Origin: Gammaproteobacteria bacterium
GTDB lineage: Bacteria > Pseudomonadota > Gammaproteobacteria > Francisellales > CACEW01
Assembly (NCBI GenBank): GCA_020050355.1
Contig: JAGVKT010000077.1
Span: forward strand, 3 to 64,002
Direction of reading: 5' to 3'
Length of the DNA: 64,000 nt
In this document: one piece after another, positions 406 through 3,236 of the stretch
How positions within the stretch are numbered: the stretch's first letter is position 1
Layout: each line of letters opens with the position of its first letter
The notes under the pieces: generated by a model
The model's input: only the letters and a program-made list of their open reading frames with translations
Databases searched by the model: none
Told to the model about the DNA's origin: nothing
Position numbers and translations under genes: made by a program

Positions 406-1929
406 CTACTGAAAACCAGCATTAATCACCAAAATAATATTACCTGCTAACTTTGCATCATTAAGCTGTGAAAATTCCTCTCTAAGTTTATTTGAAACCT
501 GACCATTATTTTCACGAATCGATCGAATAATACGATCAATATCAGCATCAGGGCCATCAAGAAACTCTTTAACATGCTCGCGTACTTGGCGAAAATTACG
601 TAAATAAGAAGCCTCTTGCCGCATTTCTTGCTCAATCGTTAAATCAATAATATTCGCCAAATACTCTACATGATCAGTTAAATCCAAATAACGCCAAGTT
701 AAATTCGCATCCTCATAAGCATCAAATATAAGATTATAGCGAACATCATCTTCAGCAATTTGCACAGGTCCAAAGCTAAAATCCGTTTGATAATGATACA
801 TTAATGGCTTAGAAAGTAATTCTAACACCTGGTCATACCCTCGACGCTTAATCGGAGTATTTGCAATAGTTGCAGAAATTGGCAAAATAAAAGGCTCTGG
901 CACCGCATCATCTCGACGCAATACATCATTCACCAAAAAACGTGAAATCCGCCCGTTACCATCAGACATCGGGTGAATATACACAAACCCAAATGAAATC
1001 ACAGCAGCACGAAGCAGCGATGACTTTCCTTGAGTTCTTATTTCAAAGTCCCGCAAACCTGAAAGCATTGACGGCACATCCTGTGAATTGGGTGCAATAT
1101 AATGAACAATAAGCGCCCAAGGACTTGTTTCCCCTACAAATACCGGAGATTTACGTAAACCATAACGAGTTGCTCGATCCCCCAAAATCTCTTTTTGCAA
1201 CTCAGCTAAAGACTCATCACGAAGTGGACTTTCATATTGCCCGCACCGCTGCTCCATCACCGCCGCAAATCGCTTTACCCGATCAACATTCTTTTCTTCA
1301 TGTTCAATTGCAAAACTCCCACGACTCTCTTTTACTGTCAACCACACAACACTTCGCATCAAAATATCAGCACCAAACTCAACTTCTAATGCCTGCAAAC
1401 GATCTTTGAAATTATATTGCTCTGCGAGTTGCACTTGCTCTGTCCGCATTACCATAGGACAATATTCTCGATTCCCAGGAAGATTATCGCGAATGCGCCA
1501 GCGAAGATTATTAGTGGATATAACAGCAGCCATATAGAGCTGTTCATCTATAGCGTCAATATAATTACCACCATTCACTCCAGGAAAATTTAATTTATGT
1601 CCTGTTAACCATTCATAAAAAAAGCAAGCACGACGGGCATATTGCCCAGTAGGCTCTGCATTAATCCAATTTTCTAACTCAACAACAGGAAGAATTTTAA
1701 ACAAACGTGCCAAAAATTCGAGGTGGACGCCCTCATGCTTTAGTGCAAACGTAAATTGATCGGCAAAAGTATCATCAGGCCGCGCAGAAGCTAAATAGGT
1801 TTTATGAATATGCCCATCTTCGTGTATAGTAGTTCTAGAGCGCGCTATTTTACTATCAATACGAAAAGGCTGCACGGGCTCAACCTTATATTTTTCAGCC
1901 AACCACTTATAACCTATCCAATTACTCAT
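406..1929 (-). CDS. Fic-domain protein (AMPylase/adenylyltransferase family), 507 aa
   Basis: The translation contains FVYIHPMSDGNGRISRFLVN, which matches the Fic catalytic motif HxFx(D/E)GNGRxxR with the H, D, GNGR and R positions intact. An upstream segment GSFAIEHEE resembles the (S/T)xxxE(G/N) inhibitory helix but has H after the Glu. Confidence 0.85.
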   Translation of the reverse strand: MSNWIGYKWLAEKYKVEPVQPFRIDSKIARSRTTIHEDGHIHKTYLASARPDDTFADQFTFALKHEGVHLEFLARLFKILPVVELENWINAEPTGQYARRACFFYEWLTGHKLNFPGVNGGNYIDAIDEQLYMAAVISTNNLRWRIRDNLPGNREYCPMVMRTEQVQLAEQYNFKDRLQALEVEFGADILMRSVVWLTVKESRGSFAIEHEEKNVDRVKRFAAVMEQRCGQYESPLRDESLAELQKEILGDRATRYGLRKSPVFVGETSPWALIVHYIAPNSQDVPSMLSGLRDFEIRTQGKSSLLRAAVISFGFVYIHPMSDGNGRISRFLVNDVLRRDDAVPEPFILPISATIANTPIKRRGYDQVLELLSKPLMYHYQTDFSFGPVQIAEDDVRYNLIFDAYEDANLTWRYLDLTDHVEYLANIIDLTIEQEMRQEASYLRNFRQVREHVKEFLDGPDADIDRIIRSIRENNGQVSNKLREEFSQLNDAKLAGNIILVINAGFQ

Positions 1930-1941
1930 AAATTACCCACT

Positions 1942-1981
1942 TTTCCATAAATTTCTATTAATTTTCATAAATTTCTATTAA
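1942..1981. promoter_or_regulatory. Tandem 20-bp direct repeat immediately upstream of the fic start (candidate operator)
   Basis: tttccataaatttctattaa (1942-1961) is followed directly by ttttcataaatttctattaa (1962-1981), with one mismatch. It begins 13 nt upstream of the fic ATG, in the fic/2145 divergent region. Confidence 0.4.
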
Positions 1982-2101
1982 AAATAGATGTTTTTAAGAA
2001 AAAACGATTAAACCTTATTATATCAATAGAAAACAGAAAAGCCAGCCAATTTTGCCAAATTCAGAAATATCATGAAACTTAAGAGCCATTTGGCTAAAAA
2101 A

Positions 2102-2130
2102 TTGACATAAATATTATTTTAATATATAGT
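2102..2130 (+). promoter_or_regulatory. Sigma70-type promoter for the 2145/2835 two-gene unit
   Basis: TTGACA (2102-2107), 17-nt spacer, TATAGT (2125-2130). The -35 is an exact consensus match and the -10 is close to consensus. Confidence 0.55.
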
Positions 2131-2144
2131 TTACAAAGAACAGA

Positions 2145-2801
2145 ATGCTGCTAATTAAAGAAGAGAAGAGCATGCCACATTCCAGGAAAGAAAAATCCCA
2201 CTTAAAACCATCCACAGCAGCCACTATCAGCTTGCTAACAGCAACGCAAAAAACGCATCTTCCTATCGTCGCTTCAAAAGCCCCACAATGCTTTCCACAC
2301 CGCTCAGCAGAACCAATTCACTTACCTTTAAACAGCTCAACAACAGAGTGCACTGCGGGTATTTATCAGAGCACACACAGAAAACTTATTCTTGCAGCAC
2401 TTGAATTATCTAATTTCGCCAAAGGTGTGGGACCATCTGGAGAAAGATGCAGCGCTTACTTTTCAGGAACAGGTGGACCAAATGAACATGCGGCAAGAGA
2501 GCTCGCTGAAGCATTCGGCTTACTAGCCCCACTCTTATATCTAACACAAAAACTTTTATCTATCACCACTCCTAAAGAATACATCAACTTTTTAAGCCTG
2601 ATTGGATTGGGAGTTTATATATTATCAAGACCAACAACTAATCCTATTGCAATGGCAACAGAAGTTCTAGCATCCGCATTCGCATCAGTACCCGGTGAAG
2701 TAATAGGTGAGGAACTTGGCAAACGGACCGCCTCGACTGTATCATTTTTCACACCAGAAAATACAGTAAAAGCAACAAACACACTAGATTACACCACATA
2801 A
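2145..2801 (+). CDS. Hypothetical protein with a hydrophobic C-terminal half (islet cargo)
   Basis: Long ORF with no motif I recognise. The predicted promoter implies a transcription start near 2137, so the second Met (2172, MPHSRKEK, preceded by gaagagaag) is the more likely start. Hydrophobic stretches include LLAPLLYL and FLSLIGLGVYIL. Confidence 0.5.
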   Translation: MLLIKEEKSMPHSRKEKSHLKPSTAATISLLTATQKTHLPIVASKAPQCFPHRSAEPIHLPLNSSTTECTAGIYQSTHRKLILAALELSNFAKGVGPSGERCSAYFSGTGGPNEHAARELAEAFGLLAPLLYLTQKLLSITTPKEYINFLSLIGLGVYILSRPTTNPIAMATEVLASAFASVPGEVIGEELGKRTASTVSFFTPENTVKATNTLDYTT

Positions 2802-2834
2802 TAACGTTTAACTCAAAAACTTAAGGATAAAAAA

Positions 2835-3236
2835 ATGGCTTTTAATACAAGATTATGGAATATGGCAATGGGTGGAGCTATTGGTGCCGCAGCTGGCTTT
2901 AAACTAGCATTAGCAGCCTGCGACCAGTTACGCACTCTTCCAGAATGTGCTGAATATGTAGATAGCAGCCCCAGAATGAGAGGCCATGTGATTATTGCTG
3001 AATTTGAAGATCCAGGCTGTTATAAAAAATTAACCACTATGGACTGGCCAGACTTAGTAGCCATAGGACATGCTAAATATTATGATCTTCGTACAGAAAG
3101 TTTAAGCCCATTTTGGACCACTACACTTATCATTGCCGGCACATTAACTGGCGCTGCAATAGGCGCAGCAGCAGGAGCAATCTATGGACACCAACGGGCC
3201 GAAGCAGAAAGAGAGCAAAATCATCATAACCCATGA
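2835..3236 (+). CDS. Small membrane protein with two glycine-zipper-like segments (islet cargo)
   Basis: The SD sequence aagga lies 9 nt upstream. Glycine-zipper-like segments are GGAIGAAAGFKLALAA at the N-terminus and IIAGTLTGAAIGAAAGAIYG near the C-terminus. No family assigned. Confidence 0.55.
   Translation: MAFNTRLWNMAMGGAIGAAAGFKLALAACDQLRTLPECAEYVDSSPRMRGHVIIAEFEDPGCYKKLTTMDWPDLVAIGHAKYYDLRTESLSPFWTTTLIIAGTLTGAAIGAAAGAIYGHQRAEAEREQNHHNP

Follow-up and report, generated by a model that had tools for sequence, protein, structure and literature searches.

Fic enzymes of class II reportedly carry an intramolecular N-terminal inhibitory helix with the motif (S/T)xxxE(G/N). Its Glu is said to reach the second Arg of the Fic motif, so that ATP cannot bind productively. 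SoFic (Shewanella, E. coli), a class II Fic, provides one-protein abortive infection, protecting against phage and being toxic when expressed (PMC12249575). CbFic2 of Coxiella is described as an effector directed at the host, where it AMPylates histone H3; its C-terminal helix-turn-helix (HTH) binds DNA and the binding regulates activity, and in FICD, EfFic and CbFic2 the inhibitory Glu supports deAMPylation (PMC10628234). PADLOC, in addition, lists the single-gene phage-defence candidate PDC-S24; the PDC candidates were nominated because they lie embedded in known defence systems (guilt-by-embedding) and are explicitly untested (Payne et al. 2024, bioRxiv 10.1101/2024.01.29.577857). Here we report a PDC-S24 fic gene in a 64,000-nucleotide stretch of DNA from a Gammaproteobacteria bacterium (contig JAGVKT010000077.1 of assembly GCA_020050355.1), the whole of which is called the window below. 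An initial annotation had proposed that Fic forms a module with two small membrane proteins encoded divergently from it. We found instead a lone gene that shares its upstream sequence architecture with its relatives, and read it, with a probability of roughly 0.6, as a stand-alone, self-regulated and auto-inhibited PDC-S24 Fic of defence type. The gene and the elements around it are the following.

406-1929, minus strand: fic gene encoding 507 aa, PADLOC PDC-S24 family, with HPMSDGNGRISR at nt 940-975 and SFAIEH at nt 1300-1317.
1951-1960, minus strand: box 3, TAATAGAAAT, within the 16-nt repeat 1946-1961; its spacing is conserved across loci.
1971-1980, minus strand: box 2, TAATAGAAAT, within the 16-nt repeat 1966-1981; it starts 20 nt upstream of box 3.
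2001-2010, minus strand: box 1, TAATCGTTTT, starting 30 nt upstream of box 2.
2017-2025, minus strand: putative extended -10 element TGATATAAT of fic, adjoining box 1 upstream and kept in the three closest relatives.
355-374, minus strand: terminator-like hairpin, 32 nt downstream of the fic stop.

The Fic protein gave a full-length match to the PADLOC model of PDC-S24 (PDLC04966), in which its residues 1-498 align with positions 1-481 of the 497 in the model (E = 3.8e-178). Pfam recognised the Fic family (PF02661, Fic/DOC) at residues 240-335 with 39.3 bits against a 24-bit cut-off and no family in the first ~190 or the last ~100 residues; the N-terminal extension of ~190 residues is highly conserved. 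A profile search against the Protein Data Bank (PDB) likewise found sequence resemblance to solved structures in the core alone (approximately residues 256-362). An AlphaFold model built from an alignment of 119 sequences (pLDDT 86.5, pTM 0.86) superseded an earlier one from 18 sequences, the quality of which (pLDDT 60) was insufficient. When the newer model was used for a structure search, exclusively Fic proteins were returned at E <= 0.001, each with a probability of 1.0. The top matches were SoFic (3EQX/3ZEC) and Coxiella CbFic2 (8CIL), with target-normalised TM scores of 0.50-0.54 over 361-385 aligned columns.

Direct reading of the sequence placed the catalytic motif HPMSDGNGRISR at residues 319-330 and SFAIEH at residues 205-210, 110 residues ahead of the catalytic His. 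The former fits HxFx(D/E)GNGRxxR, the AMPylation-competent form, except for a Met in place of the Phe, a position that is occupied by Met or Leu family-wide. The enzyme is intact, as the initial annotation had stated, and its motif is of the canonical AMPylation type. The annotation had also remarked on the atypical residue after the Glu of SFAIEH. In comparison with (S/T)xxxE(G/N), the Ser and the Glu agree and the final residue is His; this proved to be no local oddity, since both motifs, including the His after the Glu, are invariant or nearly so in the 119 aligned homologues. Judged from sequence and predicted fold, the protein is most likely a SoFic-like (class-II-like) nucleotidyl-transferase that acts as an AMPylator, and SFAIEH is most likely an intramolecular Glu-bearing inhibitory-helix motif that keeps the active site obstructed.

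This Fic has more than 2,316 homologues, at 52-86% identity; for the best 120 of them, identity over the full length was 62-86%. The family gave 369 matches among 185,579 species representatives from several phyla; its hosts include Beta- and Gammaproteobacteria, Chlamydiae, Armatimonadota (Fimbriimonadaceae), Spirochaetes (Leptospirales) and one metagenome-assembled genome (MAG) labelled archaeal. It was present on 262 plasmid records, absent from GenBank phages, and found in just 3 of 2.9 million IMG/VR contigs. Pfam annotation of the surroundings showed contexts that varied between loci, from defence-type islands with AbiJ_NTD3 and transposases through to plain metabolic operons. Among 144 immediate neighbours scanned, the recurring defence proteins included type I restriction endonuclease, MADS, TIR/SEFIR, AriA, PtuA, Dsr1 and JetD. 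No mention of PDC-S24 by name was found in the literature, in main text or stored supplements. The gene described here is a further member of this catalogued but uncharacterised family and is not distinguishable from it.

To the question of partner genes the family gave a consistent answer. Relatives of the two open reading frames (ORFs) that are divergent from fic in the window were found by tblastn in none of 96 Fic loci (~1 Mb in total). All-against-all clustering of the ORFs within 4 kb of fic at 80 loci revealed no conserved neighbour; the largest clusters, of 11 loci, consisted of ORFs that run antisense to fic and overlap it in genomes of high GC content. A small partner ORF next to fic is also absent in the window, and there is no room for one. 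The closest genomic fic lies in a gammaproteobacterial MAG (locus L002, 5763-7533; 80% amino-acid identity), and DNA similarity to it is limited to 412-2045, that is, to fic and 116 bp upstream, ending before the promoter of the other operon. Thus the PDC-S24 fic gene is a self-contained, horizontally mobile single-gene module, and this Fic is in all probability a stand-alone protein unrelated to the ORF pair. The proposed module of Fic and two membrane proteins did not survive these comparisons: the 96 Fic loci contained no relative of either ORF, a lack of co-occurrence that the initial annotation itself had named among the grounds against the module, and the pair recurs once, without this Fic.

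The L002 gene has an in-frame stop in place of the invariant Glu92 and is likely a pseudogene. It lies 150 bp downstream of tRNA-Leu, with two large ankyrin-repeat proteins and a pair of AlkB-like genes, linked by a 300-nt repeat, as its neighbours.

The region between fic and the divergent ORFs measures 215 bp (1930-2144), as the initial annotation had given it, and contains the 20-bp tandem repeat at 1942-1981 that had been taken for a possible operator. Two methods agreed on this repeat (period 20, 2.0 copies, 95% identity, TRF score 73). The two copies share an identical 16-nt core, TTAATAGAAATTTATG, to which nothing else in the 64 kb comes close. The repeat was present, in 2-4 copies, in relatives that are 86%, 80% and 76% identical. 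Conserved upstream of orthologues, it turned out to be part of a family-wide layout of three boxes. In the sense of fic, the order in the window is TGATATAAT, box 1, box 2, box 3 and then the ATG, 21 nt past the end of box 3 (from nt 1951 to the ATG at nt 1929).

To quantify this layout, 82 distinct upstream regions were scored for a three-box match with start-to-start spacings of 30 and 20 bp, against dinucleotide shuffles and against 841 spacing pairs. The match exceeded the 99th percentile of shuffles in 51 regions, and 30/20 was the best of all spacing pairs in 20 (25 within +/-1) where ~0.1 was expected; the regions being orthologous, common descent inflates these counts, which do not amount to a probability. 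On direct inspection the triplet was visible in 56 regions. The boxes lie at about -83, -53 and -33 relative to the start codon. Beta-proteobacterial loci have a conserved TTGAC after box 1, and box 2 would therefore overlap the -10 element and box 3 the transcription start, while in the lineage of the window the extended -10 element stands immediately upstream of box 1. A Fic on a Pseudomonas megaplasmid, 51% identical, retained the 30/20 layout; a Pantoea copy at 47% identity had similar boxes at another spacing. The box sequence itself differed by lineage (TAATCG, TAATAG, TATAYG, TTAACG or GAACG) without tracking host taxonomy, and the architecture stayed constant. Three Paraburkholderia loci (L070, L072, L078) had two successive three-box sets upstream of fic, with spacings of 30, 20, 27, 30 and 20.

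Spacings of 30 and 20 bp place all boxes on one side of the DNA helix. Because they are direct repeats at integral helical turns, situated at the promoter and travelling with a lone gene, they are best read as an operator; we consider it reasonably probable that they constitute the operator of fic, overlapping or directly following its promoter and moving with the gene. The protein that binds them is probably Fic itself. Fic is the most economical candidate because it is the sole protein always encoded with the boxes, and since the boxes change between lineages, the gene's own product is favoured over a universal binder. Covariation between protein and boxes was examined in 90 loci. All 13 sequences with Ser at residue 94 (EPSGQYARR) had TATAYG boxes, and nearly all with Thr (EPTGQYARR) had TAATCR boxes. 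Residue 94 was the sole column that separated the two box classes while being conserved inside each, and in a neighbour-joining tree the Ser-94 sequences fell into three or more groups. This pattern, although phylogeny confounds it, is suggestive of base read-out.

Near the C-terminus, the segment DIDRIIRSxRxNGGxxSNKL looked HTH-like by eye and is positioned as is the DNA-binding domain of SoFic and CbFic2 (PMC10628234). An RNA element in the fic leader was considered and rejected, the fold having a z score of -1.1 and Rfam returning noise only (Histone3, 21.9 bits against a 34-bit cut-off).

The mechanism that we propose would work as follows. A protein, the candidate being Fic itself, would bind the boxes and repress fic transcription. 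A potentially toxic enzyme would in this way be held low by two controls, self-repression at the boxes and obstruction of the active site by the Glu-bearing helix. Phage infection or another insult would release these controls, and Fic might then halt growth by AMPylating a host target that is essential, by analogy with SoFic. The initial annotation had counted defence among the candidate roles of the Fic module, and PADLOC independently lists the family as a defence candidate, as PDC-S24; the role as such we infer. An antiviral or toxin role, argued from SoFic, from the PADLOC nomination and from the recurring defence neighbours, is a tentative assignment, at somewhat less than even odds. A bolder version, in which PDC-S24 Fic would be a one-protein sensor-effector switched by occupancy of its operator, as in CbFic2, from being inactive or deAMPylating to being a toxic AMPylator and back, we regard as improbable; self-repression of transcription and control of the enzyme would in that case be one mechanism, which phage infection could trip.

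Several observations weigh against a self-regulated, auto-inhibited Fic of defence type. The inhibitory motif deviates from (S/T)xxxE(G/N). The defence role of PDC-S24 is without experimental support, PDC systems being untested candidates, and many members of the family sit among ordinary metabolic genes; the counts of defence neighbours stand without a genome background rate. As for DNA binding, no HTH or other DNA-binding domain was detected in the N- or C-terminal parts of Fic by Pfam, and the PDB profile search matched the Fic core only. Phylogeny confounds the link between residue 94 and the boxes, for under softer scoring many other columns were associated as well. Finally, the in-frame stop in the closest genomic relative means that fic is dispensable in at least one lineage.

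The alternative that fares best is a regulatory Fic outside defence, namely a DNA-binding, self-regulated (de)AMPylase that would reversibly modify an endogenous bacterial protein and serve as an accessory, not antiviral, factor in a stress response. The many loci in metabolic operons without defence genes fit this view, and the operator could be taken as a sign of tight self-control. The invariant inhibitory Glu, given its part in deAMPylation in FICD, EfFic and CbFic2 (PMC10628234), and the lack of a known phage phenotype for PDC-S24 point the same way. However, the family has a sporadic, transfer-driven spread (369 of 185,579 species representatives, and plasmids), was nominated by PADLOC through embedding in known defence systems, and has defence proteins recurring among its immediate neighbours. 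We therefore treat the regulatory Fic as a serious alternative, but as the less likely one.

A second alternative sees Fic as an effector that an intracellular, amoeba-associated bacterium translocates and aims at its host, in the manner of AnkX in Legionella or CbFic2 in Coxiella; the orphan ORFs would then encode further effectors. CbFic2 is indeed among the top structural matches, the closest Fic-bearing genome (L002) has large ankyrin-repeat proteins flanking the gene, and the window contains large low-complexity ORFs without known domains. Yet the family is found mainly in free-living bacteria, with identities of 52-65% across Rhodoferax, Acidovorax, Accumulibacter, Acidithiobacillus, Pseudomonas, Pantoea and Rhizobium, on chromosomes as well as plasmids, it has a conserved bacterial promoter and operator, and in the ankyrin-rich L002 fic is a pseudogene. 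These features make an effector very unlikely.

The weakest alternative, that the three genes form one system in which Fic is the toxin or sensor and the small membrane proteins are effectors, immunity factors or anchors under co-regulation from the divergent region, can appeal to the adjacency of the genes within one tRNA-bounded island, to two promoters back to back in 215 bp and to the sole other ORF pair being again divergent from a PADLOC candidate (RhuM/PDC-S05), but it is close to refuted on present data, as neither ORF has a relative in the 96 Fic loci, the sole other pair is without a PDC-S24 Fic, the conserved fic block stops at 2045, ahead of the other promoter and with the Fic boxes clear of it, and searches for homologues of the ORFs, including two metagenome scans, led to that other pair and nothing more.

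A stand-alone Fic leaves the divergent ORF pair to be described in its own right. Its elements in the window are these.

2102-2130, plus strand: promoter-like TTGACA-17-TATAGT for the two-gene operon, outside the block homologous to other fic loci.
2145-2801, plus strand: orphan ORF of 218 aa with one known homologue, P0125 (353 aa).
2835-3236, plus strand: orphan ORF (133 aa) with an AAGGA ribosome-binding site; its product has two hydrophobic segments of glycine-zipper type.

The promoter named by the initial annotation was recovered as the top sigma-70 match in the first 4 kb, agreeing at 11 of 12 positions; promoter-like sites in these 4 kb numbered 10 against 11.0 expected from shuffles, which is not above chance. 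The 218-aa ORF probably starts at ATG 2172, which is preferred because it has a purine-rich ribosome-binding site and because ATG 2145 is only ~7 nt from the predicted transcription start. Both products had been called membrane proteins. For the 133-aa ORF this description stands: glycine-zipper hydrophobic segments span residues 10-29 and 95-117, with two conserved Cys in the intervening loop, while its Pfam glycine-zipper matches are below the gathering cut-offs. The 218-aa ORF, with a maximum Kyte-Doolittle 19-residue mean of 1.29, is not clearly a membrane protein, and for it the description is not secure. The name 'gas vesicle protein' given to the 133-aa ORF by JGI probably is an artefact of a weak low-complexity glycine-zipper match (GvpT, E = 0.96).

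An exhaustive HMMER search of ~1.8 billion cluster representatives with the 218-aa ORF returned one real homologue, P0125, and two repetitive false matches. The ORF is without ~134 central residues that are present in P0125. A word-indexed search with both ORFs retrieved each of them alone; the 133-aa ORF was covered by this search and not by exhaustive HMMER. Two metagenome scans for the pair yielded no further copies. The only other known pair is therefore that of L083 (Logan SRR28423909, 150-2902), where the P0125 gene is followed by a 134-aa gene whose product is 41% identical to the 133-aa ORF, the sole known relative of the latter. Between the two pairs the proportion of nonsynonymous differences (pN) was ~0.41 with saturated synonymous sites, indicating a real two-gene operon under purifying selection. 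The L083 pair is divergent from a RhuM-family gene matching PADLOC PDC-S05 (E = 7e-150) and has no PDC-S24 Fic beside it. The idea that RhuM is a cryptic relative of Fic was rejected, profile comparison giving a probability of 0.4%. These results indicate that the ORF pair is a separate, lineage-restricted operon and not part of a Fic system. Both known copies of the pair adjoin a candidate defence gene, an observation with N = 2 that we record as unexplained; the pair may be an accessory module that prefers sites beside Fic or RhuM-type candidate defence genes.

Fic and the ORF pair share a short segment of DNA, the borders of which are marked as follows.

1-232, plus strand: insertion sequence (IS) remnant of an IS3-family transposase, comprising the OrfA end, a poly-A slippery run and ~50 residues of OrfB, cut off exactly at the att-like repeat.
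243-267, no strand: distal att-like direct repeat, a copy of the tRNA-Asp 3' end with the 16-nt core TTGGCGGAGCGGACGG at 252-267.
328-349, plus strand: two copies of GAAGCCCCCA, a motif found again at the opposite island end (3453-3501).
3450-3501, no strand: inverted repeat (3450-3464 with 3478-3492) and GAAGCCCCCA motifs, the counterpart of 328-349.
3713-3789, minus strand: tRNA-Asp (GTC), the 3' end of which lies within 3703-3727, the proximal att-like copy.

The two att-like copies, at 243-267 and 3703-3727, were the 2 matches in 64 kb, where 0.01 were expected by chance, and they bound the 249-3727 fragment that the initial annotation had marked out. Within the transposase remnant, the ORF at 74-232 matched Pfam HTH_21 (2.7e-07). 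Near-matches to GAAGCCCCCA were concentrated at the two island ends, which hold 5 of the 7 in the window, in direct and inverted copies; the motif may represent duplicated tRNA-proximal sequence or the termini of the island. Between 3237 and 3712 there is no ORF longer than 47 aa, and the island contains no integrase or other mobility gene. With its border formed by a tRNA-end repeat and no integrase inside, the 3.5-kb segment is best explained as a decayed remnant of a tRNA-associated island. Two modules with independent distributions make up this mosaic, in which the ORF pair was placed next to fic. To the right of tRNA-Asp are aceE and other housekeeping genes.

Further along the window, two large ORFs at 6779-8686 (635 aa) and 8750-11545 (931 aa) had no Pfam match. 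The 635-aa ORF is rich in Ala, Pro and Thr, with short tandem repeats and a GC content of up to 0.60 at 7201-7600. Both resemble lineage-specific, effector-like or surface proteins.

What is new here is the evidence against the proposed module, the three-box architecture and the invariant SxxxEH variant of the Fic inhibitory motif. On our reading a false lead, a system of Fic and glycine-zipper proteins, is removed, and PDC-S24 gains a regulatory architecture that can be tested, with three boxes at 30 and 20 bp and with promoter and gene in a compact unit of 1.6 kb that could be cloned unchanged. If Fic does bind its own operator, DNA-coupled control of the CbFic2 type would extend to a broad bacterial family. 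Practical gains would be modest even if our reading is true.

Compared with known systems, the island resembles tRNA-associated integrative islands in its position at the tRNA-Asp 3' end, its border of a 16-25-nt direct repeat and the IS remnant at that border; unlike them, it has no integrase or mobility gene and measures just 3.5 kb. Class I FicT/FicA pairs such as VbhT/VbhA parallel the reading proposed here, being Fic toxins restrained by a Glu-bearing helix and often on mobile DNA, but there the helix comes from a separate small antitoxin gene, whereas here the motif is inside Fic and a small partner ORF is lacking.

SoFic is the best structural match of the model, the PADLOC SoFic model matches the Fic core (2.2e-19), and both proteins have an active site of the HxFx(D/E)GNGRxxR type, with an intramolecular inhibitory-helix motif, a putative one in this Fic, N-terminal to the core. 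They differ in that the sequence alignment is limited to Fic residues 212-356 (model positions 87-230 of 361) and the NCBIfam equivalog NF046030 scores 19.1 bits against a cut-off of 550. This Fic exceeds SoFic by ~135 residues and has an N-terminal region of its own, the final position of its motif is His instead of Gly or Asn, and Pfam detected no HTH in its C-terminal part. An ORF like the 47-aa AS1 (PMC12249575) was not found; the 137 nt from the fic stop to the att-like repeat hold no credible ORF. CbFic2 shares the fold (target-normalised TM 0.54), and its DNA-coupled activity is a model for the link between Fic and operator. The HTH is established there, whereas DNA binding here would follow from the cis-elements, and the identity between the two is ~13-15%. 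With PDC-S24 the agreement extends to a full-length hidden Markov model match and to a single gene without a conserved partner, and the three-box operator is a feature that the PADLOC description of the family does not include.

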